A stretch of DNA of 64,000 bases from an uncultured Alphaproteobacteria bacterium (GTDB lineage Bacteria > Pseudomonadota > Alphaproteobacteria > Rhizobiales > Rhizobiaceae). How positions within the stretch are numbered: position 1 is the stretch's first letter; every line of letters begins with the position of its first letter. The stretch is from NCBI GenBank assembly GCA_963699855.1, contig CAVOVL010000006.1:68606-132605 (forward strand), written 5' to 3'. Positions 5,918-43,240 of the stretch are shown one piece after another. The notes below the pieces were generated by a model. That model saw only the letters and a program-made list of their open reading frames with translations. It made no database searches and was not told the origin of the DNA. The position numbers were made by a program, and so were the translations under genes.

Positions 5918-5927
5918 GGTCAGCGAC

Positions 5928-7591: not shown

Positions 7592-7595
7592 CGGG

Positions 7596-12738: not shown

Positions 12739-12744
12739 TGCGGC

Positions 12745-13189: not shown

Positions 13190-13198
13190 GGCTACCCC

Positions 13199-14097: not shown

Positions 14098-14098
14098 T

Positions 14099-15110: not shown

Positions 15111-15161
15111 TGGTTCGGCAAACTGATTGCCACCATTTGGCCGCGCACGGCAAGGGATGCG

Positions 15162-19154: not shown

Positions 19155-19173
19155 CGGTCAGGCCCTCCAAAAT

Positions 19174-19218
19174 TGGCTCCCCGGGCCGGATTCGAACCAG
19201 CGACCAACCGGTTAACAG
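19174..19218 (-). repeat. 45-bp direct repeat identical to the 3' end (incl. CCA) of the tRNA-Asn gene at 42837-42911; putative island attachment-site remnant (attR-like)
   Basis: TGGCTCCCCGGGCCGGATTCGAACCAGCGACCAACCGGTTAACAG occurs at 19174-19218 and at 42837-42881, in the same orientation. Sequence diverges immediately afterwards. Confidence 0.8.
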
Positions 19219-19567
19219 ATAATTACTTTCCTGTTTGGGAATGTGAACCGGTGTGGACGGAATTCGACCTATCCGCTCGAAGCTGGATAGTTAAGCCGAC
19301 AATAGCTGAGGCAATATCGTTATGGCAAAGATGGCTTCAATCGTCTCGCGGCGTCGTATCAAGAGGGTGTCACCGTCGTTGATCAATTGCCACCTGCTCC
19401 GTTGCCAACATGACCTTGACCGTTCCCGTCGACCCGACCACGATAGCGCTTTCAGTGCGCGGATCACCGCCGCTACCGTCCTGACGGGCTCAGTATCGTT
19501 GGAGCATAAGCTCTGAAATCTCAGCGTTGCGACCACGCGCGTTTGGCCGGTTCAATCTCATGCCAGT

Positions 19568-20979
19568 TCAGTTCATGAATGCATGTGATGGTCGGCAAGC
19601 ATGCCAGCCGGTGACCGATTGATAGGAATGGCCCGCGCGCAGCAGGAGTTCCTCATCGACGTGGCGGCCGACGAATTGCATGGCCAGCGGCATTCCGGCG
19701 CTGTCGATGCCCATCGGCAGCGTCAGCGTCGGGCTTCCGGAGAAGTCGAACGGCGCGGTGAAGCGCAAGATGCTGTTCAGTACCGTGGGGTCTTCGCCAT
19801 ATTCGCTCATTCGCTTGAGATCGGGCACCGGCATGGGCATCGCCGGCACGATCAGCATGTCGGCTTCCTCGAACATCGCCTTGAGCGCGCCGTTGAACTT
19901 CAAACGCTCCTGGAGGATTTCGGCGATTTCGACCCCTGTCATTGCGTGTCCCTGGTCGATCAGTTGCGCCAGGTCCGGACCATATTCCGACTTTCGTGAG
20001 GGGTATGTTTGAATATGCGCGGCGGCAGTCTCGACCGAGCACATGGGGATCCACATGCCGACCAGGCGTTCGTAATCCGGAAAGCGGACCTCGCGCACCT
20101 TGGCGCCAAGATCGACCAGCACGCGCTCGGCTTGCGACATGGCGGCCACGATCTGCGGATCGATGCCTTCATGCATGTAGCGCCTGTCGATGCCGATGGT
20201 CAGGCCGCGAATGCCCTTGCGGATCGACGCCAGGTAGTCGGGCACCGGATCGGCCAGACTGGTAGGGTCGTGAGGATCGATGCCCGCCATCACCGCCAGC
20301 ATGGCGGCCGCGTCGGCGGCGCTTCGCGTCATCGGACCGACGTGATCGAGCGAGTCCGCCAAGCGGAAAGATGCCATGCCTGCTGACGCGGCCCCAGGTC
20401 GGTTTCAGGCCGGTGAGGCCACAGGTGGCGGACGGAAACCGGATTGAGCCGCCGGTGTCGCTGCCGATGGAACCAAAGCACAGCCCTGCGCGAAGTCGCG
20501 ACGCCCGAGCCGGTGGAGGACGATCCGACCCAATACTCGGGATTCCAGGGGTTGCGTGGCGCCGGGTCTTCCGGATGGTGGCTGGTATAGGCGCCTTCAG
20601 TCATCTTCAGCTTGCCGAGCGTGACAGCGCCCGCAAGCTCCAGCCGGTCGACGATGGTGGCATTGTAGGTACGGCACGTAGTCCGGCGAGTATTTTCATG
20701 CCCGCCGTGGTCGGCGCGAAGGTCGTGCGGCAAAGGTCCTTGAGGCCGATCGGCACGCCGTGCAGCGGGCCGCGCCATATGCCCTTGGCCGATCTCCGCG
20801 TCGGCAATCCGTGCCTGCTCCATTGCCCTTTCCGGCAGCACCGCAAGGTATGATCGCAGCCGCCCGTCCAGCACCTCGATCCGCTCGAGAAGCGCCTTGG
20901 TAACGTCTTGCGAACTGAGCTGCCGGGTGCGGATTCGCTCGGAAACATCGACGAGATTGAGATAGTGGATTTCGCTCAT
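19568..20979 (-). pseudogene. amidase (amidase signature family, GatA-like), at least 3 apparent frameshifts
   Basis: The N-terminus MSEIHYLNLVDVSERIRTRQLSS... starts at ATG 20979. The signature region GPLHGVPIGLKDL...TTAG lies in ORF 20607-20948. The C-terminal half lies in ORF 19568-20377. Confidence 0.7.
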
Positions 20980-21162
20980 GCCGATCGCGTCCCGTTGGCT
21001 GGAGCATCGATTGGCTGCCATGACCGGGTCCTGGTCAAGCGCGTTCTGCTGAAAATCAGGACAGCGATGCAACTCCGCGATTGCCTGCGCCACATCGCTT
21101 GCTACAGTGCGGGTTCACAATTGAGGGGAGGGCAGAGCTTGGACTGGTTACGCAGCAGCTAC

Positions 21163-22122
21163 ATGGGAAGAAAGGGCGTCGCGGGCGGCAAGGCTGGCGC
21201 GCGCCACCATCTCACCGAAAAGGCGCAGGGCCAGTATCACTACGTCTATGGCCCGTACTCGGAACCGGTCATGCGGATAAAGCCCGGCGACGTGGTGGAG
21301 GTCGAGACGCTGGACGCCTTCGGCGGGGCGATCAAGTCCGAAGCGGACATGCCCTCGAAGGTTCTCAACATGCCCTTCGTCAACCCGCAGAACGGGCCGA
21401 TCGCCGTGGAGGGTGCGCAAAAGGGCGACGTGCTGGCCGTCTATGTCCACAGCCTGTTGCCGCGCGGACCGCAACCCGTGGGCACGACGGCGCTGATCCC
21501 GGACTTCGGAGGCCTCGTCGCTTCTTCGGCATTAATGCTGAACGCACCCATTCCCGAGCGCGTGAAGAAGATGGAAGTGACGCCGGACGGCGTCAAATTC
21601 TCCGACAAGATCATGCTGCCCTACGAACCCTTTGTCGGCACCATGGGCGTGAGCCCGGAGATCGAGGCGGTGAGTTCGCTGCAGCCTGACTATTGGGGCG
21701 GCAACATGGACCTTCCCGACGTGGCGCCCGGATCGGTGATGTATTTCCCGGTCCAGCGCAAGGACGCGCATTTCTTCATCGGCGACTGCCACGGGCGGCA
21801 GGGCGACGGCGAACTGTGCGGTGTCGCGGTGGAGATACCCGCGACCGTCACCGTGCAGATCGACCTCATCAAGGGATGGTCGATTCCCGGCGTTCGGCTG
21901 GAGACACAGGATTTCATCATGGCGGTCGGCAGCGCCCGCCCGATGGAGGACGCGGCGCGCATGGCCTATCGCGACCTGGTGCGCTGGCTGGTCACGGACT
22001 ACGGATTTGAGGAAAGCGAGGCGTATTTCCTTGCGACGCAGGCGGGCAAGATGCGCGTCGGCAACATGGTCGATCCCAAATACACGCTGGGTGCGTCCAT
22101 GCTGAAGAAGTATCTGGATTGA
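21163..22122 (+). CDS. acetamidase/formamidase (FmdA_AmdA) family protein
   Basis: Intact reading frame. MGRKGVAGGKAGARHHLTEKAQGQYHYVYGPYSEPVMRIKPGDVVEVETLDAFGG... is typical of the family. Start ATG 21163 chosen within ORF 20908-22122. Confidence 0.75.
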   Translation: MGRKGVAGGKAGARHHLTEKAQGQYHYVYGPYSEPVMRIKPGDVVEVETLDAFGGAIKSEADMPSKVLNMPFVNPQNGPIAVEGAQKGDVLAVYVHSLLPRGPQPVGTTALIPDFGGLVASSALMLNAPIPERVKKMEVTPDGVKFSDKIMLPYEPFVGTMGVSPEIEAVSSLQPDYWGGNMDLPDVAPGSVMYFPVQRKDAHFFIGDCHGRQGDGELCGVAVEIPATVTVQIDLIKGWSIPGVRLETQDFIMAVGSARPMEDAARMAYRDLVRWLVTDYGFEESEAYFLATQAGKMRVGNMVDPKYTLGASMLKKYLD

Positions 22123-22132
22123 GGGGAAACAC

Positions 22133-22895
22133 ATGGATCTTGGATTGAAGGGGCTGCGCGTCCTTGTGACAGGCGGCAGCAAGGGTATCGGCCGCCATTG
22201 CGCGGAAATATTCGCTTCGGAAGGCGCGCATGTCTCGATCTGCGCGCGCGATGCCGGCGGTGTGACGTCTGCGGTCGAAAGCCTGAAGTCGAAGGGTGTC
22301 ACGGTCATCGGCCGGGGCGTGAACGTGGCCGACAAGCATGCCCTGAAAGCCTGGGTGAGCGACAGTGCGGCGACCCTTGGCGGCATCGATATCGTCGTCG
22401 GCAACGTTTCCGCGCTTGTCGGTCGGAGAAGATGAATCCGACTGGGAAGCGACTTTCCAGACCGACATGATGCATTGCGTGCGGCTGGTGAACGCGGCGA
22501 TGCCATTCCTCGAGAAGTCGAAGGCCGCATCGATCACGCTCATCTCGTCGGTCTCGGGACGCGAGGTGGACTTTACCGGCTATGCCTACGGCGCCTTCAA
22601 GGCGGCGATCGTGCATTACGCACAGGGTCTAGCGTTCAAGCATGCGGCCAAGGGCATTCGCGCCAACACCGTGTCGCCGGGCAACACCTATTTCGACGGC
22701 GGTATCTGGCAGTCGATCGAGAAGAACAACCCGGCGCTGTTTGCGCAGGCGCTGGCGCTGAACCCCACGGGCCGCATGGCGAAGCCCGAGGAAATCGCGC
22801 GGGGCGTGGTGTTCCTGGCAAGCCCTGCATCGAGCTTCACCACGGGCACGAACCTCGTGATCGACGGTGCGCTGACGAGGGGCGTGCAGCTCTAG
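22133..22895 (+). pseudogene. SDR family oxidoreductase (short-chain dehydrogenase), one apparent frameshift near 22410
   Basis: N-terminus MDLGLKGLRVLVTGGSKGIGRH (Rossmann TGGSKGIG) in ORF 22133. The remainder, with the YGAFKAA catalytic region, lies in ORF 22365-22895. RBS GAGGGGAAAC before the ATG. Confidence 0.75.
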
Positions 22896-22899
22896 CGGT

Positions 22900-23196
22900 T
22901 CAGCGTTCGAACACCTCATGCGCGGTGACGACGGTCACCGCGCCGTCGAGGCTGTCGCCTGCTTCGGCGAAGAATCCCTTCGAGCCGGCGCCATTGTTGT
23001 GCCGGTCCATCGCCACCTTGTCGGTGAAACGCTCGTAGGTCGTGAACACGCAAGGATCGGACGGGTCCTGCGCCACGAAGAAGTCAACCGTGTCCGGCTC
23101 GTTGGCGCGCACGAACGCGCCAACCTTGACCAGCGCGTCGCGCACTTTCGCTTCATGGCCCGGCTTTGCCCGGATAATCGCCGTCAGGGTTTGCAT
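22900..23196 (-). CDS. antibiotic biosynthesis monooxygenase (ABM)/Dabb-like small protein
   Basis: Starts at MQTLTAIIRAKPGHEAKVRDALVKV..., with an AAGGAG RBS 7 nt upstream of ATG 23196. The ORF track begins earlier, at 23238, overlapping the upstream gene. Confidence 0.65.
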   Translation of the reverse strand: MQTLTAIIRAKPGHEAKVRDALVKVGAFVRANEPDTVDFFVAQDPSDPCVFTTYERFTDKVAMDRHNNGAGSKGFFAEAGDSLDGAVTVVTAHEVFER

Positions 23197-23215
23197 CGCT
23201 ACTCCTTGCATTCGT

Positions 23216-24961
23216 TCAGGCGGCGGGGGTAAGGCCAAGTTCGGTGATCATTGCTTCCTGCATCTTGAACTTCTGCGCCTTGCCGGTGGCGGTGAGCGGG
23301 AATTCGTCGACGATGCGCACGTGTCGGGGGATCTTGTAGTGGGCGATCTTGCCGCGGCACCACTCGCGCAATGCCTCGCCCGTGAGGCCGGAGCCCGGGC
23401 GGGCAATCACCCAGGCCGCGACTTCCTCACCCATTTTCGGGTCGGGCAGGCCGAAAACCTGAACTTGCGCGATGTCGGGATGGCTGGCGAGAAACTCCTC
23501 GACCTCGACGGGATAGACGTTTTCGCCGCCGCGGATCAGCATGTCCTTGCTGCGGCCGACGATCTTGCAATAGCCTTCGGCATCGATGGTGGCGAGATCG
23601 CCGGTATACATCCAGCCGTCGCGGATCGCCTCGGCCGTGCGCTCCGGATCGTTCCAGTAACCTTTCATCACCAGGTAGCCGCGCGTAACCAACTCGCCCT
23701 TCTGGCCGATGGGAAGCGTGTTCCCGTTCTCGTCGACAACGCGGCACTCGGCGTGCGGCTGGATGCGGCCGACGGTCGATACACGGCGCGATACATCATC
23801 GTCGGTGGATGACTGAAACGAGATCGGGCTCGTCTCGGTCATGCCATAGCCGATCGTTATTTCCCGGCAGTGCATCTCGTCGATCACGCGCCGCATCAGC
23901 GGTTCGGGGCAGGGCGAACCTGCCATGATTCCCGTGCGCAGCGACGACATATCGAAGGTGTTGAAGTCCGAGTGATCCAACATGGCGGCGAACATAGTCG
24001 GCACGCCATGCACGGCATTGCAGCGTTCCGCCTCGATCGCCGAAAGCGTTTCGCGCGGCTCGAAAGCTTCGCCCGGTATCACCATGGTGACGCCGTAGGA
24101 ACAGGCAGCGAGATTGCCCAGCACCATGCCGAAGCAATGGTAGAACGGCACGGGAATGCACAGCGCATCGCCGGGCCGCAGCTTCATGGCGCGCGCGGTC
24201 GAGATGGCGTTGTTGACGATATTCTTGTGCGTCAGCGTCGCGCCTTTCGGTGCGCCGGTGGTTCCTGACGTGAACTGGATGTTGATGGGATCGCCTGGGT
24301 TCAAGGAAGCGGAGATGGCGTCGAGGCGCGAACGCACCGCCGAGCGCCCCCGGCTCATGACCTCGTCGAAAGAGAAGCAGCCGGAACGCGGGTTCGGGCC
24401 AAGCTGGATGACCGCCTTCAAATGCGGCAGTCGTTTGCTTTGCAAATGACCCTGCGGGCAGTGCGCAAGCTCCGGGGCAATTTCCTCCACCATGGACAAG
24501 TAGTTCGAGTTCTTGAATTGCGGAGCGACGATCAGCGTCTTCACGCCTGCCTTGTTTAGCGCGTATTCAAGTTCGCTGGTGCGATAGGCCGGATTGATGT
24601 TGACCATGATCGCGCCGATGCGCGCAGTGGCGAACTGCGCCAGCAGCCATTCGGGGCGATTGGGCGACCAGATGCCGATCCGCTCGCCCTTGTAAACACC
24701 GATCGACAGCAGCCCCGCGGCCAGCCGGTCAACCAGCCGGGCAAACTCGGCGTAGCTCCAGCGATCGCCGGTCTGGCGGAACACCGCTGCCGTACGCTCG
24801 CCATGGCGGCGCACCACCTCGGCGAGGAAGGCGGGAATGGTGGCATCGAGCAGCGGACGTTCCGTGGATCCGGCGACGTGCGATATGCCGTTCATCGGGA
24901 CGATGCCCGGCCTTGCCGTAATCGTTGCTGCCATGGCCCGGGCCTCCCGTCCCGCACTCAC
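23216..24961 (-). CDS. AMP-dependent acyl-CoA synthetase/ligase
   Basis: Intact 581 aa. AMP-binding motif [18 protein letters not shown] and ...GYGMTETSP.... The start overlaps the upstream stop (ATGA). Confidence 0.85.
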
Positions 24962-27321
24962 ATCTTCCGCCAGTCACCTGCCTGTTCGAAGGCGCCGGCG
25001 GCGCGATAGATGGTGCTTTCCTCGTAGCGCCTGCCCACGAGTTGCATGCCGACCGGAAGGCCTTGCGAAAAGCCGCACGGCACATTCATGGCCGGATGGC
25101 CCGACACGTCGAACGGCGCCGTGTTGGCCAGCATCTCGAATGCGCGCTGGCACCACAATGCCAGCGAGCTGTTGGCCGGCGGCAGCGGCGTCGCCTTCAT
25201 CGGCGTCGTGGGCATCAGCAGCAGGTCGTAGGAGGAAAGCATCTTGTTGTACTCGTCGCGCAACTGCCGCGACAGGTTCTGCGCCTTTGCATAGTAGTGA
25301 CCGCGAGTGTGCTTGAGGTGGTACATGCCCACCAGCATGCTGATCTTGAGCGTGTCGGAAAGCTCGTCCGCGCGCGAGCGCCAGTGCGAATGATAGTCGA
25401 GCAGCGAGGTGGTGTAGAGGCCTTCCCAGCCGGTGCCCATGCCGTTGCCGAGCATCATCTGGTTGGTCAGGCCCTCCAGCGCTATCGGGGTCCAGATCGC
25501 CACCCCCTTGAGGTGCCATGGCACCGAAACCTCGTCGACGGGAGCGCCGAGCCGGCGGAAGAGTTCGGCTGCCGCGCGCACTTTTGCATCCACATCGGCT
25601 TCGGCGCCGACCTGTCCGAAGCCTTCCTTGACGACGCCGATACGAAGGCCCGAAACGCCGCGATTGACGGCGCTCGTATAGCGGTCGGTCTTCACGTCGT
25701 ATTGGCGCGGGTCCAGCCCGTCGGCGCCGGCTATCACTTCCAGCATCAGCGCGTTGTCGATGACGTTCTGCGTCATCGGGCCGGTGTGGTCGATGGTGGC
25801 CTCGATCGGCATGATGCCGGTATAGGGAACGAGGCCGTGCGTCGGCTTCATGCCATAGACGCCGCAAAAGGAAGCCGGCATGCGGATCGATCCGCCCTGG
25901 TCTCCGCCAATGGCCATGTCGACGAGGCCCGCGCCGACCAGCGCGCCGGAACCGGACGACGATCCACCGGCGGAATAGCCGTGCTTGTGCGGATTGTGGA
26001 CCGGTCCCGTCGCGTTGGTGTGGCTTCCGCCGGACAGGCAGAAATACTCGCAATGCGCCTTGCCGGCGATGATCGCACCGGCGTCGAGCAGGCGCGTCAC
26101 GATCGTCGCGTCAATGTCGGGCGTGTAGCCCTTCAAGGTCGCGGCGCCGTTCATCATCGGCACGCCGGCGAGGCAGACATTGTCCTTGAGCGCCACCGTG
26201 CGCCCGTGCAGGGGACCGCGCGGCGCACCCCTGATCTCGGTCTTCACGTACCAGGCGTTCATCGGGTTTTCCTCCGCCGTCGGGCGGTAGCCCGATGTGC
26301 GCGGATAGAGCACCGGCGGCAGGTAATCGGGCAGCGCATCGACGACATCGTAGGCGTCGAGGGTGCCTTGCATCACGTCAAGGAATTCCTGGACGCGGGC
26401 GTCCGACATGTGCATTCCAAGTTCTGACACCACATCCTTCATCTGGGCCAAGGTCGGGCGCTGGACCGTCATGTAGGATATCCTTTCCTGGAGCGATGCC
26501 TGGACGGGCAGGGGGGCGGAGCCGGCCCCGGCGCCTGCCGTCGATCTTGACTGTGCCGCGGGCGCGGCGAGCTTGGGAACCGTTGCTTTCGACGCGGGCT
26601 TTGCGCCGCTGCCGCCAAGGCCGGTGAACTCCTCGATCAGCGCCGGATCGGATGCTTCCGACCCCGATATCTCGCCGATGATCGCGCCCTTCTGGATCAG
26701 CAGCACGCGATCCGACAGGGCCGTGATGAAGTCGAGGCTCTGTTCCACCAGCACGATGGAAACACCCATGCGGCGGTTGAGGCCTTTGAGAAGGTCGATG
26801 ATCTCGTCGATAATGGAAGGCTGGATGCCTTCCGTGGGCTCGTCGAGAAGAATGAGATCCGGCTGCGAAATCAGGCAACGCGCCAGCGCAAGCAATTGCT
26901 GCTCGCCGCCGGAAAGCGCGCCTCCGTCCCGGTCGAGAAGCCGCTCGAGCCGGGGAAAATCGCGCAGCACCTGCTCGATCGCCTCGTCCTCGTCCAATTC
27001 ATGTGCCGCAACACCCATGCGCAGGTTGTCGCGTACCGTGAGGTTCGGGAAAATTCCGCGTCCTTGCGGGACGTAGCCGATGCCGAACTGCGCGCGCTCC
27101 GATGAGCGCATGCGCGTCAAGTCATTGCCGTCATAGCGCATGTCGCCACCGGTAACGGGAATAATGCCCATCACGGTCTTGAGCAGCGTGCTCTTGCCCA
27201 TGCCGTTATGGCCAAGGACGCCGAGGATTTCGCCTGCGTCGACGGAAAAGTCGACGCCGTGCAATACGGGCACGCGGCCATAGCCGGAACGCAATCCCTT
27301 GACCTCAAGCAGTGTGCTCAT
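24958..27321 (-). CDS. single 787-aa ORF fusing a LivF/UrtE-like ABC transporter ATP-binding domain (N-terminus, about 235 aa) through a low-complexity linker to a complete amidase-signature amidase (about 500 aa)
   Basis: N-terminus [15 protein letters not shown]...[11 protein letters not shown]...[15 protein letters not shown]. Linker [41 protein letters not shown]. Then [15 protein letters not shown]... with [11 protein letters not shown], the amidase Ser-cisSer-Lys region. No stop in this frame. Confidence 0.7.
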
Positions 27322-28064
27322 GCGCGGTGCCCCAGATAGACTTCGCGGGCGCGCTTGTCCGACGAGATGGCGTCCATCGTGTCCTCCATGAGGATGCGGC
27401 CCTCATGGAAAAGCGTCACCGTGCGCGAGATCATGCGAATGAACTGCATGTCGTGTTCCACCACGATGAGCGCCGCCGAATTGTTGATTTCGGAAATCAG
27501 TTCAGCCGTACGGGCGGTCTCTTCGTGGGTCATTCCGGCCGCCGGCTCGTCCAGCAGCACCAGCCAGGGTTCGGCCGCGATCACCATGCCCAGTTCCACC
27601 CATTGCCGCTGTCCGTGCGCTAGGCGTCCAACGGTCGAGCGGCGGATGTCGCCCAGCCGGAGGCGGTCGATCGTGTCGGATGTGAGCGAGCGGGCCTTCG
27701 CCTGTCCGTGCCAACGCCGGGCCGAAAGCCAGATGTTCTCCTCTGTCGTCAGCCCGTCGAATACGTTCGGCACCTGTGTCTTGATGCCGACGCCCATGCT
27801 GGCGACTTCGTGCGGTTCGGCGCCGGTGGTGGTGGTGCCGCGAATGCGGATTTCGCCTTCGCTTGGCACCAGCTGGCCGGTGAGGCATTTGAAGAAGGTC
27901 GACTTGCCCGCGCCGTTGGGGCCGATGAGGCAGCGCAGTTCCTTGTCGAACAGGGTGAAATCGACCTGGTCAACGGCCCGCACCCCGCCGAAATGCATGG
28001 AGAGGCCGCGCGTCTCGACAACGGCATCGCGCGTGCGGATCTTGCCTTCCACCGCCATGTTCAT
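27318..28064 (-). CDS. LivG/UrtD-like branched-chain-type ABC transporter ATP-binding protein
   Basis: MNMAVEGKIRTRDAVVETRGLSMHFGGVRAVD..GPNGAGKST. Start ATG 28064 overlaps the LivM stop. The track ORF begins earlier, at 28136. Confidence 0.8.
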   Translation of the reverse strand: MNMAVEGKIRTRDAVVETRGLSMHFGGVRAVDQVDFTLFDKELRCLIGPNGAGKSTFFKCLTGQLVPSEGEIRIRGTTTTGAEPHEVASMGVGIKTQVPNVFDGLTTEENIWLSARRWHGQAKARSLTSDTIDRLRLGDIRRSTVGRLAHGQRQWVELGMVIAAEPWLVLLDEPAAGMTHEETARTAELISEINNSAALIVVEHDMQFIRMISRTVTLFHEGRILMEDTMDAISSDKRAREVYLGHRA

Positions 28065-29105
28065 TTCACACCTTCCGGCTTGCGCACGGCCCGGCGGCGG
28101 CGGACCGGTCCGCGCCTGCGCTTGGCGTTTGCCCAATCGATCACGGTGGGCGCTATTCCCTTGGGGACCAGGAGCACGAAAACAATGAGGATGATGCCAA
28201 GCACCAGATTGTTGTTGAGCTGGCTTTGCGCGCCCAGTGACGATGTCAGGTAGAACAGCGCGAAGGTGGCGATCACCGGTCCGATCAGCGTTCCGCGCCC
28301 GCCGACGATGACCCAGATGATCGTCAGCGCCGCGTTATAGAGGCTGAATACATCGGGCGTTATGCGTCCCACGCCATTGCAGAACAGCACGCCGCCGATC
28401 GCGGCAATGCCGGCGCCTATGGTGAAGATGCCGAGCTTGTAAGCGCGCGTATCATAGCCCAGCAGTTCGGCCCGAAGTTCGTTCTCGCGGATCGAAACGC
28501 AGACCCTGCCGAAATGCGTCGTCACGAGCCAGCCGGCGAATACAAAGCACAAGATGAGCGCGGCCATCGCGACATAGAAAACGTGTTCCGGCGACAGCAG
28601 CGCCTTCGTATCCCACGGCAGGTTTATGGGCGGCGAGGTTATGCCGTTAAAGCCACCCAGCAACGATTTGCCGATCTTGAATTCCGGACCGGACGTGCGG
28701 CGCATCAGCGAGAAGAGAATCAGCGTTACGGTGAGTGTGATGACGCCGAGATAGACGTCGGAAACGCGGCCGTAGAAAATGAAATAGCCAAGCAGGGCGG
28801 CAAAGGCGCAGGCAACAGCCACCGCCAGGAGGATCGCCCAGGAGGTGCCGCCAAAATTGATGGCAGCGATCGTATAGGCATAGCCGCCAATGCCGAAAAA
28901 CGCGACCTGGCCGAAGCACAAGATGCCGCCGAATCCCCAGATCAACGCGAGGCTCAGCGCAAGCACGGCAAGGCCGATCACGGTGGTGAGGTTTATGATC
29001 GTGAAGAGCTGCAGCACATGCGGCGCTGCCAGCATGAAGACGATGCCAATCAGCCGCGAAAATCAGCGTCGCGCGCATCTCGCGAAGGGTTCCGGAACCG
29101 TTCAT
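28061..29105 (-). pseudogene. LivM/UrtC-like ABC transporter permease, probable frameshift near 29045
   Basis: The main body is intact in ORF 28061-29035. A likely N-terminus MNGSGTLREMRATLIF sits in a different frame (ORF 28647-29105) and overlaps the LivH stop. Confidence 0.65.
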
Positions 29106-29971: not shown

Positions 29972-30008
29972 TGGGCTCTCCCGTATTGTGTTCCGGCGAG
30001 TGCCGGCG

Positions 30009-31257: not shown

Positions 31258-31315
31258 TGCAGGCTCTCCTGTCTTGAGTTCAGGCTGGCGCGTGAAGGCG
31301 TGCTTGGCCGGTGCG

Positions 31316-32946: not shown

Positions 32947-33162
32947 CGGCGCTGGCTTTCGAACAACAGAAATCGGTTAGCCGGCGAGTTCCCTCACCGG
33001 GCATTTGGTCGTGCCGGAGTTCTGAATTTCCCCTGGATGTGACGCTATAAGCGGCAGCGCCGGAGTCAAGGTGAAAAAAGAGACAAATGCAGAATTGTGA
33101 CGAAATCCGCATCGTCGGCGTTCATAAAGCAAGCAACGCAACTTATTGATTTAAAAGCAGGC

Positions 33163-33747
33163 CTAACGAAGCCCGTCCTTGCCTTCCGCAGCGTCGTGCG
33201 TCAGCCCGCCGACGCGGGCCAACGGACGGCCACTGTCAGTCACGGCGACGGCAACCATGATTTCCCCTGCGCGCGGGGCATCATTGAGGCGCACTTCAAT
33301 GCCGTCGAAATGGCTGCGCACATAGGCCGCGTCCTTGTGGCCAAGCGGAACGTCCAGCACCTGGCCAGGTCCGCCCATCTTCTTCGAGGATGGCACGAGC
33401 GCCGCGCCTTTTTCGACGGCCTTTCGCAGGGGTGCGCCGAGCTTTGGATGAAGGATCGCGGCTGCGTGTTCCAGTTCGCCGGCTTCCCCGACCATGGCGG
33501 CCTTGCCATAGCTTTGCGCCTGTGACGGCTCGATGCCCAGCGCCTCCACGCAGCGCTTGCCAAGCAGGCCGCCAAGTTCCTCGCCGATGTCGATCAGCGG
33601 CGTCAGGTCATCTTCGAAGCGCCCGGCAAACGGGTTGGCGATCACGGCGATTGCGACCGCCTTGCGCGTCGGATTTTCGAGAACTTGGCCTGCCTCGCGC
33701 CGCGTCTCCTCGACCCACACGGCCAGTTTGCGAATATCGGCGCTCAT
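33163..33747 (-). CDS. amino acid synthesis family protein (DUF1185 / PF06684), copy 2
   Basis: MSADIRKLAVWVEETRREAGQVLENPTRKAVAIAVIANPFAGRFEDD..., from the internal ATG 33747 of ORF 33163-34035. Paralogous to the upstream gene. Confidence 0.65.
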   Translation of the reverse strand: MSADIRKLAVWVEETRREAGQVLENPTRKAVAIAVIANPFAGRFEDDLTPLIDIGEELGGLLGKRCVEALGIEPSQAQSYGKAAMVGEAGELEHAAAILHPKLGAPLRKAVEKGAALVPSSKKMGGPGQVLDVPLGHKDAAYVRSHFDGIEVRLNDAPRAGEIMVAVAVTDSGRPLARVGGLTHDAAEGKDGLR

Positions 33748-34328
33748 CTCAATCCGTCCTCTCCGGCTATATCCTTCGCGGCAAGTCCTCCGGCGCGGTC
33801 GTGAATGCGTGGGCCTGTCGTCATGACCAGCACCAGCGCCATTTCGTCGGCGCGCGGCGAATCGTTCAGCCCGACTTCCATCGAGTCGAAATGGCTGCGC
33901 ACGTATGAAGCATTGATGTGCGTTACCGGTACGTCGAGCCGGGTGCCGACCGTTCCCACCTTCTTGGTGGAAGGAACGATCGCCTTTGCTCCACCCAGCA
34001 CTTCGCGCATCGCATAGCCTCCGGGCGCATGCCAAAGCGCTCCGTGTTCCAGTTCGCCCGCCGAACCGATGATCGCGCCCTTGCCATAGCCCTCCACGAC
34101 GGACGGATCGCCGCCCAGCAGCGCCACAAGCCGGCGCGCCATTTCGAGGCCGAGCGGCTTCAGGTCTTCCATGAAAGGCTGGATGTTTTCGACGTAACGG
34201 CCTGCGAATGGATTTCGGATCACCGCGATGATGGCGGCCCGGCGCAACGGCTTTTGCGCCCTCGGCCCGCCTTCGTGGTGGATTTCCTCCAGTGCGGTCG
34301 CGATCTTCCGGATCTCGACTTGCGACAT
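33744..34328 (-). CDS. amino acid synthesis family protein (DUF1185 / PF06684), copy 1
   Basis: MSQVEIRKIATALEEIHHEGGPRAQKPLRRAAIIAVIRNPFAGRYVENIQPF.... The stop overlaps the start of copy 2 (ATGA), suggesting translational coupling. Confidence 0.65.
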   Translation of the reverse strand: MSQVEIRKIATALEEIHHEGGPRAQKPLRRAAIIAVIRNPFAGRYVENIQPFMEDLKPLGLEMARRLVALLGGDPSVVEGYGKGAIIGSAGELEHGALWHAPGGYAMREVLGGAKAIVPSTKKVGTVGTRLDVPVTHINASYVRSHFDSMEVGLNDSPRADEMALVLVMTTGPRIHDRAGGLAAKDIAGEDGLR

Positions 34329-34341
34329 TGCTACTTCTCCC

Positions 34342-35193
34342 TCAACAAACACCGGCAAGGCAATGGGTGCGGCCTACGGCGGCAGCCCTGCCTTGCAGAA
34401 AAAGGGCCGCGGCGGCGATTTGGCCGCGCCCGACGAGTTCGCGCGACCTGACCGCGCCCGCGTTCAAGGCGGCGTCGCATTCGTCCGGCATCAGTGGTCC
34501 GACGCCGACCGTCACCAGGCGCCCGCCAAGATCGCTGTCCGGCTGAAGCCTGCTCGCAGGCTCGCGCGCGACAGCCGGGTGTCCCGGTATGTCCACGGCG
34601 TTGCCGATCACGGTCGCGGCAGCATCCGCCCTTGATGAAGTGCCCGCAAGCACCGTAACGGCATCGGCTATGCCAAGCGAGAAACTGCGTCCGACCCTGC
34701 CGCTTGTCGCGATGCCGCGGACAGGATCGGCCGCATTGATCTCGATGGCGCCCAGCGACACGTTGGCAAGGTCTGCAATCGCGATGCGGAACGACTGGCC
34801 GTCATCAAGATGCAAGGCGATGTCGCCGCCATTGTTGACGTAGGCGCGAACGAGCTTTGCCGAAGACACCATGGCTTCCAGGATTTCTTCGGCCACGGAC
34901 CCGGCAACTGCGGCCATGGGGGTAATGAAACCGGTGTCGCCATGCGGCAGCACCGCCTCGAACATGCGCTGAGCAATGCGCCCCCGCGGCCTCGCGCCAA
35001 CCGGGCTGCGCAGCAGCGGCAATTCCGCGACGAGTTCGTCCAGTACCGTGGCGAAACGCTGGCGCGCAGCTTCGAAAGCAATTGTGCGTTCGCCATCTGC
35101 GCCGATGATAAGGTCTATCGGTCCGTGCTGCAGATGCAACCGCTCGGCCCCTGGTGTGCGTCCTGGTAAAATCGCCGAGACAGCGCCGGTCAT
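34342..35193 (-). CDS. UPF0280 family protein (conserved partner of DUF1185 genes)
   Basis: Intact 283 aa ORF, MTGAVSAILPGRTPGAERLHLQHGPIDLIIGADGE.... The family assignment rests on recalled similarity and is moderately confident. Confidence 0.5.
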   Translation of the reverse strand: MTGAVSAILPGRTPGAERLHLQHGPIDLIIGADGERTIAFEAARQRFATVLDELVAELPLLRSPVGARPRGRIAQRMFEAVLPHGDTGFITPMAAVAGSVAEEILEAMVSSAKLVRAYVNNGGDIALHLDDGQSFRIAIADLANVSLGAIEINAADPVRGIATSGRVGRSFSLGIADAVTVLAGTSSRADAAATVIGNAVDIPGHPAVAREPASRLQPDSDLGGRLVTVGVGPLMPDECDAALNAGAVRSRELVGRGQIAAAALFLQGRAAAVGRTHCLAGVC

Positions 35194-36678
35194 CGCGGCC
35201 TGCTCCGCGATTTTCCCCAGCGGTAATTCTGCTTGTCCGTGGGGTCGGGCTCGCGCTCATGTGCGGCGACGGAACGGATGCCCGGCGCAAGCACGCTTTC
35301 GACAGGCTGGATGCGGTCGAGATAACCCCCGAGCGCCGCATAGTCCTCCCTGCGAAGCGTGAACTCGATGGGCGCGACCAAGGCTGGCGTCGGCACATAG
35401 CCGAAGGAATTGGAGGGCATCTTTGTCACGTCGACCATGACGGTTATGCCGCCGCCGGGCCAGACATAAGCTTGTGCGCCGCCACAAGAAACATAGGTCA
35501 GCGCGTCCTTCACCGAACGCGTCAAGCGGACGGGATTCGTCGTCACTCCGGCCCGCAATGATCCGCCAGCGCCGCCCATGAACAGCACCGAGCACATCGC
35601 GGGCTCGCAATTTTCAGCGATGATTTCCGCAGATGCTCGCAGGGCAGGCGGGGCTTGCGCCAGAACCGGGACGAGATTTGCGTCGAGTTCGTAGTAGGCC
35701 CATTGCTCGCCGGTCGTGGAAATCATCAGCATGCGCAGCCCCGGCCAGGCGATCTTCGGATTGAAGGGATCCGAGGATCGTCAGCGGATCGTCTATGCTG
35801 GTGCCGCCCCATCCGGTGCCCGGTTCGGCAACCTGAAAATAGCGTCCGGGCGTGGAGCGCCGGCCTTTCATTCTTATTCCTGTCGGCGGAATGTCGAGCA
35901 GCTTGCCCGCCTGGTGTTCGGAAAGGACGCCGGTGATGTGGTCATCGACGACAACCACCTCGTCGGCATTGCCCAGCCACTGCGTCGCGAACATGCCGAT
36001 GGTTGCCGAACCGCATCCCACGCGCATCAGTTTTTCGGGGACGCCATCGATGACGGGTGCCTTGCCGGCCTCGATCACGACGGTCGCGCCTTCGTCGATG
36101 GTCACTTCAACCGGCTCGCGGTTGCACAGCTTGAGCAACGCCTCGCAAGTGATGCGGCCTTCCTTCTTGGAGCCGCCGGTGAGGTGATCGACGCCGCCGA
36201 GCGACAGCATCTTCGATCCGTATTCGGCGGTCATGACATGACCGACCGGTTCGCCGTCCACCCTCACGATGGCGCGCTCATGGCCGATATGGCGGTCGGT
36301 GTCGATTTTCACCTTCACGCCGCAATAGCTGAAAATGCCCTCGGTAACGACAGTCACCATGTCGACGCCGTCGACTTCCTGGCTGACGATGAAGGGTGCG
36401 GGCTTGTAGTCGGGGTAGGTGGTGCCCGCGCCGACAGCTGTCACGAAGGGACGGTCGCCCTTGATCATATCCCCGTCCCAGTCCTGGCCGCCATTCCCGG
36501 CTTCAAGGAACGGAACCGCTTCCTCGCGGGCGGCGATGACGGTCAGCGGATCGAGCCGGACCAGTTCGCCGCCATGGTTGGCGTATCGGTCACAGGCGCC
36601 GGAGCGGCCTTCGGCGATATAGCAAAGCACCGGGCAGGCGTCGCAGCGGATCTTGTCCGCCGCAAGAACCTCATTCAT
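35190..36678 (-). pseudogene. Cys-rich N-terminal (putative Fe-S) protein of the family sometimes annotated 6-hydroxynicotinate reductase-like, one apparent frameshift near 35740
   Basis: N-terminus MNEVLAADKIRCDACPVLCYIAEGRSGACDRYAN in ORF 35614-36678. The C-terminal about 180 aa lie in ORF 35190-35732. Confidence 0.45.
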
Positions 36679-39366
36679 GGCCGGCCTCCTTCAACGCGGC
36701 GCGTACGAGCGCTGGCGTTGCCGGTACGCGGTGGAGGAGAACGCCAGTTGCATTGCGGATCGCATTGACGATCGCGGGAGCGGTGGGAATGAGCGCGTGC
36801 TCGCCCAGCCCCTTGGCGCCGTAAGGGCCGTGCGCATCGGTCTCTTCGATGATGATCGTCTCTATCGGCGGCACGTCGCCGATCGTGGGGATCAGATAGT
36901 CGTGCAGGTTTTCGGTCCGGCCCGGAATGAACTCCTCCATTAGGGCCATGCCTAGGCCCTGTGCGACGCCGCCATGCACTTGGCCCTCGACCAGCAGCGG
37001 GTTGATCGCCTTGCCGACATCATGCGCAGCGACAATCCGGATCGGGCGCACATTCCCAAGCTTCATGTCGACCTCGACAACCGCCAGGTGCGCCGCATAG
37101 CCGAACTGCGCATAAGGTTCGCCCTGGCCGTTTGCGTCGAGCGGTTTCGTGGGCGGATCGTAGCTTTCCACGGCGACGAGCACATAGCCTTCGTCATCGG
37201 CTTCCATGCGCGCCGGATCGAGCAGGTGGACACCGCTCGCATCGGCGATGCGAAGCGATCCCGACTGCGAAGCGTGATCACGGCATCTTCCGCGGCATTG
37301 CATTGGCGCAGGATCTGCCGGCGCAGCGCTTCGCCAGACAGGCGCGCTGCATTGCCGGTGACGAAGGTCTGGCGAGAGGCGGAGGTCTTGCCCGCATCGG
37401 GCGTGTTGTCGGTATCGGAAGACGCAAGTGTGATGGCGTCGAACGGAACGCCGAGCGCCTGCGCGAAGATTTGCGCAATGACCGTGTTGGAGCCCTGGCC
37501 GATATCGACTGCGCCCTGGTGCAGGACGATCGTGCCGTCACGCGCCGATCGCGGACTTGATCGTCGAGGGATTTGGCATGGAAGTATTGCCGCAGCCATA
37601 CCAACCTGCCGCCACGCCCACGCCACGCTTCACGGCAGCATTCTCCGCATTGAAACTCGCGCAATCCGCGAGCGCGGATGCGTAGGCCGGGCGAAGCGCC
37701 TCCAGACACGCCCTGATGCCGACGCCCTGCGCGAATACCTGCCCGCACACCGTGGGTACGCCGTTTTCCAGCGCGTTGAGAATGCGCAATTCCAGCGGAT
37801 CGACTTGAAGCGTCAAGGCAAGCGTGTCGATCGCCGTTTCCTGCGCAAGCGCCGATTGCGGCACGCCGAAACCGCGAAATGCGCCCGAGGGGGCGCAGTG
37901 CGTATAAACCCCGCGGGAGCGGGCCGTGTAGTTTTCGATGCGGTAGGGCCCCGAAGCGTGGATCGGCACGCGGGTCGCGACCGTCGGCCCCCAGGAGGAA
38001 TAGGCGCCGGTGTTGAAGTCACCCTCGAACGTCATTGCACAAAGCTTGCCTTCGCGCGTCGCGCCAAGCCGGATGCGGATGGAGGAGGGGTGCCGCTTGG
38101 TCGTCGCCTGCATGGTTTCGGTACGCGTGTAGGCCATGCGCACGGGCTTGCCGGTCTTCAGCGGCGGCCAGCGCCAGATAGGGTTGCACAGAGACATCGA
38201 GTTTGGAGCCGAAGCCGCCGCCAACGGCCGTGGGGACGATGCGAATGTCCTTGCGGTCCATGGCGAGGATGTCGGCAACGGTCTCAAGGTCCATCACCGG
38301 CGCTTGCGTGCAGGCGTGGATTTCCAGCCTGCCGTCGCGCATCTGCGCAAAGCCCGCCTCCGGCTCGATATAGCCGTGCTCCACGAAACCGGTTTCGAAT
38401 GCATTCTCGACAACGATCTCCGCGCCGGCCAGGGCGGCATCCGCATCACCGCATTTAACGAAACCCCGGCACATGACGTTTCCGGGACGGTTTGCATGGA
38501 GCTGCGGCGCGCCTTCCGCCAGCGATGCCGGCGGCTCCAGCACCGAGGGAAGCTCGGTCCAGCGCACGGGGAAAGCCTGCGGATCGAAACGCGCCATCGT
38601 CTCGGCCTGCCCGACAACCGCTGCAACCGCATCGCCGCGGTAAAGCGTTTCCCTTTCGGCAAAAACAGGCTGGTCGATGAAGCCGGGGATGACGCCAAAC
38701 AGATTGCGCCCCGGCACGTCGCGGACGGTCAGTACCGCCTCTATGCCCGGATTTTCCGCCATGAATGCGTCGATATCGCCTAGCTCGAACAGCGCATGGG
38801 CAAATGGCGAGCGCACCACCTTGACCACCAACGTATCCGGCGGCGCGATGTCATCGCCATAGCGCTCGGTGCCTTCGACACGGGTGCGACCGTCGATCCG
38901 CCGGATCGATGTTCCAAGGCTGCCGTCGCCGTCCAGCCTCGCGCCATCGGAACCTGCGGCGAGCACTGCGTCGATGATCTTGCGATATCCGGTGCAGCGG
39001 CACAGCACGCCGCCAAGGGCGTCGCATACCTCTTCTTCGCCCGGATGCGGGTTCGTACGAAGCAGGGCCGTTGCGGAAACGATCATGCCCGGCGTGCAGA
39101 TGCCGCACTGCGCCGCCTGGTGATCCTCGAAACTGGCCATCAAGGCCGAACCCGCCGGGTCGGAAACGAGGCCGCGGACGGTCTCGACGCTGCGGCCCTG
39201 CGGCTTGATGCGCCGGCATCAGGCAGGCGCAAACGGGTTCGCCGTCGACAAGCACCGTGCATGCGCCGCAATCGCCCGCATTGCAGCCGATCTTCACTTC
39301 GCGCGCGCCGAGCCTTTCGCGCAGGAAGTGAGAAAGCCGTTCGCCGGCGTCAGCCGTTGCGGCCAC
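36671..39366 (-). pseudogene. molybdopterin-dependent hydroxylase (xanthine dehydrogenase/CoxSL family) with N-terminal [2Fe-2S] domain fused to the MoCo-binding large subunit, at least 5 apparent frameshifts
   Basis: [2Fe-2S] motifs CNAGDCGACTV and QCGICTPGM...LCRCTGY. MoCo-domain pieces lie in ORFs 38019-39143, 37538-38287, 37063-37626 and 36671-37303. Confidence 0.75.
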
Positions 39367-39414
39367 GCGCTTCGCCGTTCAGCATGATGGCGATCCGGTT
39401 TGAAAGCTGAACGT

Positions 39415-40255
39415 TCATGCGGGCATTGCCTTTGCCATTGCGGCTGCAAGCGCACGCGAAATCATTTCCGCAGCGGCCTCCCTGCGATACGTGCTGCTGC
39501 CGCGCACGTCGGATATCGGGGATAGGGGCGCCAAGTGCCCGGCCGCGATTTGCGGCAGGTCGTCCGTCCGGCGGCCGACTAAGTCTGCTTCCAGCGCCGG
39601 AAGCCGTTGCGCAACCGGCGAACATGCGCCGACCGCGATGCGGGTTTCGCCGATGCGGCCGTCGCGGACATTTAGGGCAACCGCGACCATGGCAATGGAA
39701 ATGACGAGATAGCGGCGAGCGCCCGCCTTGATGAAGCTGGAATGAAGGTCTTGCGCTAGTTCCGGCAAAAGTACCGCCGAGACAAGTTCTCCCGGCCGCA
39801 GGTCCGTACGCCGCACGCCAGCAATAAACCGGTCGAGCGGCAGCACCCGTACTGCGCCGCGTGACACGAGTTCAATGGAAGCGTTGAGTGTCAGCAGCGG
39901 CGGTACGCCGTCGGCTGCGGGGGAGGCATTGCAGATATTGCCGCCAATGGTTCCCGCATTCTGGATTTGAACTGAACCGACTTCGCGTGCAGCGGCCTTC
40001 AGACCGTCGAATGCAGGCGGCAGCTTTGCGCGAACGATGTCGCTCCAGCGGGTCGCGGCGCCGATGCGCCAGCCTGACGCTGTCTTTTCGATTCCCCTGA
40101 AACCCGGCAGGCGCGCCGACATCGAGAAGCGAGCGTGCGCCAATCCGTTCGCCCTGTGCGGGAAACCAGTCGGTGCCGCCGGCTACGGGCGCGGCGTCCA
40201 GCTTCTCGAGGGCGTCGAATGCCTCGTCCAGGGCCTTTGCAGACAGATATGCCAT
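39415..40255 (-). pseudogene. molybdenum hydroxylase FAD-binding subunit (CoxM/XdhB-like), one apparent frameshift near 40140
   Basis: N-terminus MAYLSAKALDEAFDALEKLDAAPVAGGTDWFPA in ORF 39872-40285. The remainder (QNAGTIGGNICNASPAADG...) lies in ORF 39415-40143. Confidence 0.7.
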
Positions 40256-40448
40256 TACCAGACCCGCATCTACGTTAAGCGACAAATAGAGAATGAGGCG
40301 TACAGGGCTGTCAAATGGATTCCGGCTTTTTCTTCAATGGTTGAAGCCGCAGGAATGTACAATTCAAGACGGCGCGCCGCCGCTTGCGGCCCGGTCAAAT
40401 TGCTGGTTCACTCCCGCCGTGGGGCGAAAAGGCAGGCGGGAGTGAACG

Positions 40449-41696
40449 ATGGCGCATGAACCGGCAGACCCAAGCGGTGGCGGCCCGACCAGGTTGGTGA
40501 TCCGCAACATCGGAATGCTGTTGTCGGGTCGTCTGGAGGAGCCGATCCTCGACGCGGATTGCCTTGTCGCCGACAATGGCAAGATCACCGCATGGGGCAA
40601 GGAAAGGGATCTCGAAACTGACGGCGCCACGACGCTGATCGACGCGAACGGCACGACGCTGTGCCCCGGCCTTATCGACAGCCATGTGCACCCCGTGGTG
40701 GGCGACTACACGCCACGCCAGCAGCAATTGAACTGGATCGACTCCACCCTGCATGGCGGCGTTACGACGATGATTTCCGCCGGCGAGGTGCACATGCCGG
40801 GGCGTCCGCGCGACGTGGTCGGCCTCAAGGCGATGTCGATCGCGACGCAGCGCTTCTACCAGAATTTTCGCCCGTCCGGGGTCAAGGTTCATGCCGGAGC
40901 GCCGGTTATCGAGCACGGCATGGTCGAGGACGACTTCAAGGAACTGGCCGCTGCCGGCGTGAAGCTGCTTGGCGAAGTGGGCCTTGGCAGCGTCAAGGAC
41001 GGCAAGACCGCAAAGCAGATGGTGGGTTGGGCCCGCAAATATGGAATTCAAAGCACGATCCACACCGGAGGTCCTTCAATTCCCGGCTCCGGGCTGATCG
41101 ACGCCGACATGGTGCTGGAAACGGGGACGGACGTCATCGGACACGTCAATGGCGGGCATTCGGCATTGCCTGACGACCAGATCATCTGCTTGTGCGAGCG
41201 CTGCGGAGCCGGGCTTGAGATCGTCCACAACGGCAATGAACGCGCCGCGCTGCTGACGCTCAACACGGCGCGCGAGTTGAAGCAGCTTGACCGGATCATC
41301 CTTGGTACCGACGGCCCGGCCGGCTCGGGCGTCCAGCCGCTCGGCATCCTGCGGATGATCGCGATGCTATCGAGCCTTGGAAATGTCCCGGCGGAAATCG
41401 CGTTCTGCTTTGGCACCGGCAACACGACGCGCCAGCGCAAGCTTGACACGGGCATCATCGAAAAAGGCATGTGCGCCGATTTCGTATTCCTGGACCAGGC
41501 GCAACATTCGCCGGGAAAGACCATGCTGGAATCGGTAGGGCAGGGCAACTTGCCGGGCGTCGGCATGACCGTCATCGACGGCGTCGTGCGCAGCGAGCGC
41601 AGCCGCAACACGCCACCCGCCGGACGCATTCCCGATCGTGGTGCCGGTAAGGCACTGATAAACATCACCCTGCCAGGATGTCGCTGCTCAGTATGA
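40449..41696 (+). CDS. metal-dependent amidohydrolase (enamidase-like / cyclic amidohydrolase family)
   Basis: Intact 415 aa with the HxH motif GLIDSHVHP. Amidohydrolase-fold family. The enamidase-like assignment is an inference from gene context. Confidence 0.6.
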   Translation: MAHEPADPSGGGPTRLVIRNIGMLLSGRLEEPILDADCLVADNGKITAWGKERDLETDGATTLIDANGTTLCPGLIDSHVHPVVGDYTPRQQQLNWIDSTLHGGVTTMISAGEVHMPGRPRDVVGLKAMSIATQRFYQNFRPSGVKVHAGAPVIEHGMVEDDFKELAAAGVKLLGEVGLGSVKDGKTAKQMVGWARKYGIQSTIHTGGPSIPGSGLIDADMVLETGTDVIGHVNGGHSALPDDQIICLCERCGAGLEIVHNGNERAALLTLNTARELKQLDRIILGTDGPAGSGVQPLGILRMIAMLSSLGNVPAEIAFCFGTGNTTRQRKLDTGIIEKGMCADFVFLDQAQHSPGKTMLESVGQGNLPGVGMTVIDGVVRSERSRNTPPAGRIPDRGAGKALINITLPGCRCSV

Positions 41697-42299
41697 GTTC
41701 GATGCCGGCCGCCCGCATCATTTCCAGTGCCGCCGGTCCGGTTGTCTGCGGATCGACGGCCGCCGATGCATCGGTGATGACGAGCGTTTTGAAGCCGAGG
41801 GCATGCGCGTCCATCGCAAGGCCGCTGACGCAATAATCGGTCGCGATGCCCGGTCACGAAAATCCGCTCGATGTTTCTTTCGCGCGCATAGCCTGCCAGC
41901 CCGGTCATGGTCTGGCCGTCGACCATTCGGAACGCCGAATAGCTGTCGACATGCGGCAGATATCCCTTGCGGATGACCAGTTGCGCGTGGGGAATGTCGA
42001 GGTCGGGGTGAAATTCGGCGCCTGGCGTTCCCTGTACAACATGATCGGGCCACAGCACTTGCGTGCCATAGGGCATTTCGACGGTGTCGAAAGGCTGCTT
42101 TCTGTCATGCGACGATGCAAAGGAAACATGCCCGCGCGGATGCCAGTCCTGCGTCAGCACGACATTTTCGAAACGCCGCGGCCACCTGGTTGATGACCGG
42201 CACGATCTCATGCCCGCTGGCAGTCGCGAGCGCCCCGCCAATGCAGAAATCGTTCTGTACATCGACCACGACAAGAAGGTCGTTCGGGCCAGGCGTCAT
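41660..42299 (-). pseudogene. pncA: nicotinamidase/pyrazinamidase (PncA, isochorismatase family), at least 2 apparent frameshifts
   Basis: N-terminus MTPGPNDLLVVVDVQNDFCIGGALATASGHEIVPVINQ in ORF 42105-42305. Middle FENVVLTQDWHPRGHVSFASSH... lies in the frame of ORF 41048-42274. After IERIFVTG there is a one-base insertion (accgGgcatc). The C-terminus IATDYCVSGLAMDAHALGFKTLVITDASAAVDP...ELILSSDILAG lies in a third frame. Confidence 0.7.
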
Positions 42300-42836
42300 G
42301 TTCAAGTAGTTTCTCGGATTACGTTTCTAGCCCCAAAACTCACACGAAAAGAACTTTCCGTAAAGCATCTACAAATGCGATTCCCAAGACAGCCTCAGTC
42401 CATCGGCAAACCATTTTGTTGGCGGAGAATGCGCAGGCGCTCTAGGAGGTTGCCGACAGCTGAAGTCTTCCGATGTCAATAGCAGTGCTGGCTGGCATCG
42501 CAATCGCGTCGCACTCGCGTGTGACGCACGAAGGTGGCGCTGGCAGTTTAGTACTTCAACGAGCCTGAATTAGTAACTTCAGGCATAGAATTAAAAAACT
42601 AGCTTAACATGCTGCAAAAAAAATAAAATCATTTGAAATACGTGAAAGTCTCGAAGGGAAATGCGGCGGCCGGGGCTCGAAGGGGCAACCGTCCCCCGTA
42701 CCCAGGCAAATCGATTTCTGGCATCAGATCTCAAGAATCCAACTCAAGAAAGAGCAAACAAAATCGCATTTCGTAGATATACCGTAGATCACGAAAAAGG
42801 GGTTAGCGCCAAAAATCGCTAACCCCTTGTTAAATT

Positions 42837-42911
42837 TGGCTCCCCGGGCCGGATTCGAACCAGCGACCAACCGGTTAACAGCCGGTTGCTCTACCGCTGA
42901 GCTACCGAGGA
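42837..42911 (-). tRNA. tRNA-Asn (anticodon GTT), with encoded CCA
   Basis: The reverse complement TCCTCGGTAGCTCAGCGGTAGAGCAACCGGCTGTTAACCGGTTGGTCGCTGGTTCGAATCCGGCCCGGGGAGCCA folds as a cloverleaf (acceptor stem UCCUCGG/CCGGGGA, anticodon loop CUGUUAA). Confidence 0.9.
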
Positions 42912-43023
42912 TCAGTGCTCTGTGGAAGGCGCATATAGCAAAGCGCCTAACGAATTGCCAACCCCAAAGCGGACAAATATTCACCGCGCCCAATCGTTGC
43001 ACCCGGGTGAAGCCGCCAGTTGG

Positions 43024-43236: not shown

Positions 43237-43240
43237 GGCG

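Follow-up and report, generated by a model that had tools for sequence, protein, structure and literature searches.

A tRNA-Asn genomic island with matching att cores and no integrase, probably the relic of a tyrosine-integrase insertion, in an uncultured alphaproteobacterium

How does a chromosome come to hold a segment that has the ends of an integrated element and none of the genes that would have put it there? The question is raised by a 23.7-kb segment in a 64,000-nucleotide stretch of contig CAVOVL010000006.1 (positions 68,606–132,605 of the forward strand; assembly GCA_963699855.1), hereafter the window, from an uncultured alphaproteobacterium. The segment is bracketed by a tRNA-Asn gene and by a fragment of the same gene, which the original prediction, made from the sequence alone, read as the attL/attR (attachment site) signature of a tRNA-integrated genomic island. 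We find that this segment is a genuine island and probably the relic of a tyrosine-integrase insertion at tRNA-Asn whose recombination module was later deleted.

The window holds a single tRNA gene, tRNA-Asn(GTT), as identified with ARAGORN over all 64 kb. The 45 nucleotides at its 3′ end occur exactly twice in the window, at 19174–19218 and 42837–42881, in identical orientation, so that the isolated fragment lies where it had been predicted. None is expected by chance, because 100 shuffles yielded no match with up to three mismatches permitted. The exactness of the repeat thus stood, and its length of 45 bp did not: reading the sequence revealed one extra identical base on the low-coordinate side, which gives a repeat of 46 bp (19173–19218 = 42836–42881). 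This block starts with C32, the base that opens the anticodon loop (CTGTTAA), and extends to one base beyond the encoded CCA, and the two cores are identical at 46 of 46 positions. The copies lie 23,663 bp apart from start to start, with 23,618 bp (19219–42836) between the two 45-mers. Sites that begin in the anticodon loop and extend as far as the CCA end are a known class of att sites in tRNA genes (bioRxiv 10.1101/2020.11.02.365908). The three features are as follows:

42837–42911, minus strand: intact tRNA-Asn(GTT) (ARAGORN; Rfam tRNA, 68.3 bits), identical to the tRNA of the nearest genome
42836–42881, minus strand: proximal repeat copy (attL core), the 45 nt of the tRNA 3′ end and one flanking base
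19173–19218, minus strand: displaced tRNA-Asn 3′ fragment (attR core), an exact direct repeat of 46 bp with C32 as its first base

The nearest genome, the metagenome-assembled genome (MAG) Salaquimonas sp. JTS-AC146 (locus L001; 89% protein and ~87% DNA identity), contains the corresponding empty site. L001 1–11638 aligns to window 54529–42833 and L001 11590–15694 to window 19218–15127, with synteny running on to window position 1. In this genome, the tRNA-Asn gene and its native terminator run straight into the left flank of the window, and the join lies at the tRNA 3′ end. A three-way alignment places that terminator, which directly follows the tRNA in L001, just outside the displaced fragment in the window, whereas the regenerated tRNA is followed by a different hairpin:

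19130–19165, minus strand: native tRNA terminator hairpin (GGGCCTGACCG...CGGTCGGGCCC, then a T run), which aligns to the hairpin directly after the L001 tRNA-Asn
42797–42828, minus strand: island-borne terminator-like hairpin with a 12–15-bp stem, directly downstream of the regenerated tRNA and absent from L001

The comparison with related genomes that the original prediction had proposed was therefore positive, L001 being contiguous across the tRNA 3′ end, and speaks for an island: the segment of 23,663 bp went in precisely at the repeat. L001 came from a search that used the GcvT-like gene beside the tRNA as the query with one genome per species, which returned 80 loci, of which 40 were scanned for tRNA genes. 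Among these 40, only the closest, L001, has tRNA-Asn adjoining the GcvT-like gene. Because the tRNA is absent from this position in the 39 other loci, all from Hyphomicrobiales, its location is lineage-specific. The combination of tRNA-Asn, the GcvT-like gene and a conserved 70-aa open reading frame (ORF; window 42837–43240) is likewise confined to the window and L001 (0/39 other loci). Separately, two further stretches of the window are missing from the otherwise syntenic L001, one of 9.85 kb (1694–11545; sugar ABC transporter, creatininase, FGGY kinase, M42 peptidase and BtpA) and one of 2.4 kb (12739–15126).

The 46-bp repeat is a bona fide att site, as integrase-bearing elements elsewhere use it. 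The exact 45-mer is present in nine IMG/VR contigs, seven with an intact tRNA-Asn and one more that ends inside the gene. In one of them, IMGVR_UViG_3300048577_000200 (L083), a displaced copy (79–123) and an intact tRNA-Asn (9911–9985) bracket a 9.8-kb element with the same 46-bp core, boundaries and orientation as in the window. Its integrase, which has Arm-DNA-bind_3, Phage_int_M and Phage_integrase domains (P4-type), adjoins the displaced fragment and reads inward. The other genes of this element encode an AAA_25 protein, an HK97 capsid and an SRAP protein. L083 differs from the window island in having its own integrase and phage-like genes, and the two have no common sequence outside the core. 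As a whole, L083 1–10008 has the look of a prophage remnant or of a small satellite that encodes a capsid. In a second contig (L086), an integrase gene leads into the core, beyond which the sequence is not that of a tRNA, an attP-like arrangement. Together, these contigs indicate that precisely this block of identity serves integrases of at least two arrangements.

Most of the island interior also exists elsewhere, at a different tRNA. From 42350 to 19570 (22.8 kb), the window is collinear with two parts (L093 and L092) of the 367-kb contig_36236 (ERZ25039527) at 91.5–95.3% DNA identity, and the block is also collinear with three Logan short-read contigs (L094–L096) at 93–94%. Contig_36236 also carries the closest homologs of both the terminal amidase (95% identity) and the flotillin (99%). 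At least two genomes have the block at tRNA-Val, L093 and L094 sharing 95.5% identity. In these genomes, it begins 58 bp after tRNA-Val(TAC), which itself follows tRNA-Asp (L093 251–531; L094 1–130). On contig_36236, it ends 22 bp before a convergent GPAT gene (L092 11405–11430), which is followed by PGM, hupB, lon, clpX and clpP. No repeated tRNA-Val fragment was found beside the block in these other genomes.

The base composition of the cargo was another comparison proposed at the outset, and neither GC content nor tetranucleotide usage deviates from the flanks. Dinucleotide δ* values between block and flanks (0.0135–0.0177) lie below that between the two flanks (0.0226). The flanking composition of the window correlates with that of the tRNA-Val genomes at r = 0.977 and with that of L001 at r = 0.991. 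The match between block and flanks implies that the donor was compositionally close or that the block comes from the same lineage.

Island-specific DNA is confined to the two ends, 42351–42836 and 19219–19569. Both have a higher AT content than the genome, and neither is present where the block occurs without repeats. Neither contains a known RNA according to Rfam. Their features, together with an insertion sequence (IS) scar in the distal one, are:

42351–42836, 486 bp: tRNA-proximal end, 48% GC, non-coding, with no ORF and no six-frame Pfam or Rfam match; homology with the L093/L094 block stops at 42350
19219–19569, 351 bp: distal end, 54% GC, non-coding, with no six-frame Pfam match; homology to L092 stops at 19570, the stop codon of the amidase
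19391–19482, minus strand: IS66-family scar with the final 14 codons of orf1/tnpA and the initial 17 of tnpB, cut short on either side

The tRNA-proximal end has no match in phages, in plasmids (the tRNA apart) or among 97 fetched loci, and could represent either what was once an attP arm or the scar of a deletion. An AT-rich, non-coding stretch of ~0.5 kb abutting the tRNA had been predicted at the usual place of an integrase gene. Its composition (48% GC against 63% elsewhere) and lack of coding content bear this out. In L083, the integrase adjoins the displaced fragment rather than the tRNA. It is the distal end, where L083 carries its integrase, that holds the IS66 scar. By blastn, 19390–19491 matches IS66-family elements of rhizobial plasmids at 77–85% identity (E down to 1e-19), and the annotation of CP050294 identifies the matched stretch as the tail of orf1/tnpA plus the beginning of tnpB. 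On the minus strand, a tblastn search recovered RTVAAVIRALKALS and VVGSTGTVKVMLATEQV, which are the 14 C-terminal residues of Orf1 and the 17 N-terminal ones of TnpB; no other part of the IS was recovered. Because the fragment is truncated on both sides, at least two rearrangements must have occurred at this end. The scar favors integrase loss over trans-mobilization, the two explanations that the original prediction had left side by side.

Searches for mobility genes bore out the predicted absence of integrase, excisionase and transfer genes and recovered no remnant of them. Pfam searches of all ORFs found no recombinase, relaxase, type IV secretion system (T4SS) or phage gene among the 19 island genes, and six-frame Pfam searches of both ends at E ≤ 1 gave no matches. 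When the L083 and L086 integrases were compared by tblastn with all 64 kb, the sole match lay in the tRNA portion of an ORF that had been over-extended. The cleanly called contigs collinear with the cargo likewise contain no integrase. Pfam searches of the ORFs of both flanks found metabolic genes only, which leaves no helper element in the 64 kb. By the Pfam domains of all its genes, the segment has none of the relaxase, T4SS or own integrase of an integrative and conjugative element (ICE) or an integrative and mobilizable element. It has no capsid, terminase or replication genes such as a prophage or phage satellite would carry, and its DNA match to phages is the tRNA only. A composite IS66 transposon would have an IS copy at each end, and here one ~100-bp fragment lies at one end.

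The 19 genes inside the island are all metabolic or transport genes apart from a flotillin gene, as judged from Pfam, plasmid annotations, JGI names and the collinear, cleanly called contigs. This agrees with the predicted catabolic cargo of amide and nicotinate-like modules plus a flotillin. Gene boundaries were mapped from the frameshift-free contig L094:

33163–42305: nicotinamide/nicotinate module (Pfam; names from plasmid annotations and JGI), comprising the next seven lines
41665–42305, minus strand: nicotinamidase-like isochorismatase
40449–41658, plus strand: enamidase
39415–40255, minus strand: Mo-hydroxylase FAD subunit
36671–39418, minus strand: Mo-hydroxylase fused Fe–S/MoCo subunit
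35190–36678, minus strand: 6-hydroxynicotinate reductase-like protein
34342–35193, minus strand: AbpE/UPF0280 protein
33163–34328, minus strand: two AA_synth genes
31316–32946, minus strand: flotillin (Band_7 and Flot domains)
19568–31257: amide uptake and hydrolysis module (Pfam; collinear with L092 and L094–L096), comprising the lines that follow
30009–31257, minus strand: periplasmic binding protein
28061–29971, minus strand: two permeases
27318–28064, minus strand: ABC ATPase
24958–27321, minus strand: ABC-ATPase–amidase fusion
23216–24934, minus strand: acyl-CoA synthetase
22900–23196, minus strand: ABM monooxygenase
22133–22895, plus strand: SDR
21139–22122, plus strand: formamidase/acetamidase
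19568–20979, minus strand: amidase

The gene order of the nicotinamide/nicotinate module agrees with that of clusters on Rhodobacterales plasmids and in another of the fetched loci (L082). We rejected a plasmid origin of the whole island, as the similarity to plasmids is at the level of single genes (71–80%) and scattered over several of them. In the 787-aa fusion protein, the ATPase domain of an ABC transporter is joined to a complete amidase domain, and because the gene is unbroken in the short-read contigs L094–L096, the fusion is not an assembly artifact. Outside the island, window positions 54965–63961 encode a Rieske oxygenase, an allophanate hydrolase (Amidase and AH_C domains), a GntR/FCD regulator, an AtzH-like protein, a split amidase, an isochorismatase and a permease, a set similar to genes for the mineralization of cyanuric acid and biuret. 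The neighborhood as a whole is rich in the catabolism of amides and N-heterocycles.

Many of these genes are split into two or three frames by single-base insertions or deletions, which occur about once per kilobase across the window, core genes included (for example, 46047–47674, 50526–51610, 36671–39418 and 30009–31257). One 553-aa L001 protein maps to three window frames at 95–98% identity, and the broken core genes are 96–98% identical in protein to L001. Against the short-read contig L094, the window has 23 indels in 19.4 kb, every one of a single base. Gene decay was rejected as the cause, because the 1-bp indels also hit core genes and are absent from L094–L096. The frameshifts are long-read consensus errors. 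Since they are technical, the cargo is to be treated as intact, and ORF-based annotation of the window will under-call genes.

How these pieces would fit together can be set out as a sequence of events. A circular element would have borne an attP site that exactly matched the 3′ part of tRNA-Asn over 46 bp, and a tyrosine integrase would have recombined it with the chromosomal tRNA gene, presumably by strand exchange in the anticodon loop. As the alignment with L001 shows, the incoming 3′ copy regenerated the tRNA and brought a new terminator, and the original 3′ part with its terminator was displaced to where it now lies, 23.7 kb away. The same event would have delivered the 22.8-kb block, with its genes to break down nicotinamide/nicotinate and to take up and hydrolyze amides, along with the flotillin. 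Later deletion, probably by IS66-associated rearrangements at the distal end, would have removed the integrase together with whatever excision or transfer genes there were, leaving a passive, chromosomally fixed metabolic island that retains both core att sites. Several observations weigh against this account. The empty site is seen in one comparator genome only, itself a MAG, and the window comes from an error-prone assembly. No integrase fragment is present at either island end at the protein or DNA level, and arm-type repeats common to both ends do not rise above shuffled sequence. The block is compositionally indistinct from its flanks (tetranucleotide r = 0.988–0.993; GC 0.631 against 0.626–0.638). 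Finally, the same block occurs elsewhere without att ends, so that the cargo may not have come with them.

Loss of the integrase need not mean loss of mobility. Cis-mobilizable elements (CIMEs) are defined by having lost integration and transfer genes and retained attL and attR (PMC6323972), a definition that the island fits in its gene content and in its two identical cores. It could be a hitchhiker of this kind, still mobile, with functional att sites and no recombinase of its own, which an element like L083 or L086, resident at another place in the genome or newly acquired, excises, or beside which such an element integrates and then carries it along (cis-mobilization by accretion). The cores have stayed identical even with no selection acting on the displaced copy, elements with an integrase and exactly this core exist, and the presence of the block at a different tRNA in other genomes hints at repeated movement. 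Neither a circular attP nor a second attR junction turned up, however, exact patterns for both junctions giving 0 matches in IMG/VR and 0 in JGI metagenomes. The window also contains no helper, no arm-type repeats were detected, and the distal arm, as its IS66 scar shows, has been rearranged and may be non-functional. We consider continued mobility unlikely on balance. A different history would separate the ends from the cargo: the repeats would stem from a small element like L083, and the block, native in this lineage to a locus beside tRNA-Val, would have been moved or copied in by an IS66-mediated rearrangement that replaced the interior and the integrase. At least two diverged genomes (L093 and L094, 91.5–93% identical to the window) do have the block at tRNA-Val, gene-tight and without att ends, it has the composition of the host, and the IS66 scar lies exactly at one of its boundaries. 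Such a capture would require two precise replacement junctions, whereas there is a single IS66 fragment, the other boundary showing neither a second copy nor a target duplication; it strikes us as quite improbable. Hardly any weight attaches to a chimeric contig joined at the repeated tRNA sequence. The many 1-bp consensus errors are typical of long-read metagenome assembly, but a 46-bp repeat is far below long-read length, two false joins exactly at its boundaries would be needed, and both outer flanks are syntenic with one L001 contig on either side of a single tRNA. A decayed integrase-mediated insertion remains the explanation that we favor.

The case provides a base-pair record of how an uncultured Salaquimonas-like bacterium acquired a whole nicotinamide/nicotinate and amide catabolic set by one insertion. 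It also indicates that tRNA-repeat islands without an integrase, which integrase-based finders overlook, occur in environmental Hyphomicrobiales too. The occurrence of the block at two different tRNAs in different genomes offers a small lead on the movement of large metabolic modules. A bolder idea, for which we would claim little likelihood, is that the 22.8-kb block is a recombinase-less cargo module repeatedly set downstream of different tRNAs and moved by helper integrative elements; if true, large sets of catabolic genes in Hyphomicrobiales would have a hitchhiking system that resembles CIMEs.

Set beside known systems, the segment is a decayed tRNA genomic island, real and of an ordinary kind, that involves no new mechanism. 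What is new here is the core common to L083, the IS66 scar and the presence of the 22.8-kb block at tRNA-Val elsewhere without repeats. A regenerated tRNA and a displaced fragment that mark the island ends are the basis of Islander (PMC4383910). With the tyrosine-integrase islands that it finds in tRNA and tmRNA genes, the window island has in common the intact, regenerated tRNA at one end, the displaced 3′ direct repeat at the other, the insertion downstream of the tRNA and the absence from a relative, whose site is empty. It departs from them in having no tyrosine integrase, the gene that defines such islands, and no atypical base composition in its cargo. Like CIME(L3catR3), which ICESt3 mobilizes in Streptococcus thermophilus, it is flanked by attL and attR cores and has no integration or transfer genes, and it differs in having no known cognate ICE in its host, an IS66 scar in one arm and a host from Hyphomicrobiales rather than Firmicutes. 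The closest parallel in site is found among the asn tDNA islands of Enterobacteriaceae, of which 1/32 has repeats only and 6/32 have neither repeats nor integrase (bioRxiv 10.1101/2020.11.02.365908). The repeat-only island, like that of the window, lies at tRNA-Asn, keeps its direct repeats and has no integrase. The asn1 islands of the P4-like clade begin in the T-loop, whereas the island described here begins in the anticodon loop, in a host lineage that differs at the level of the phylum and with different cargo.

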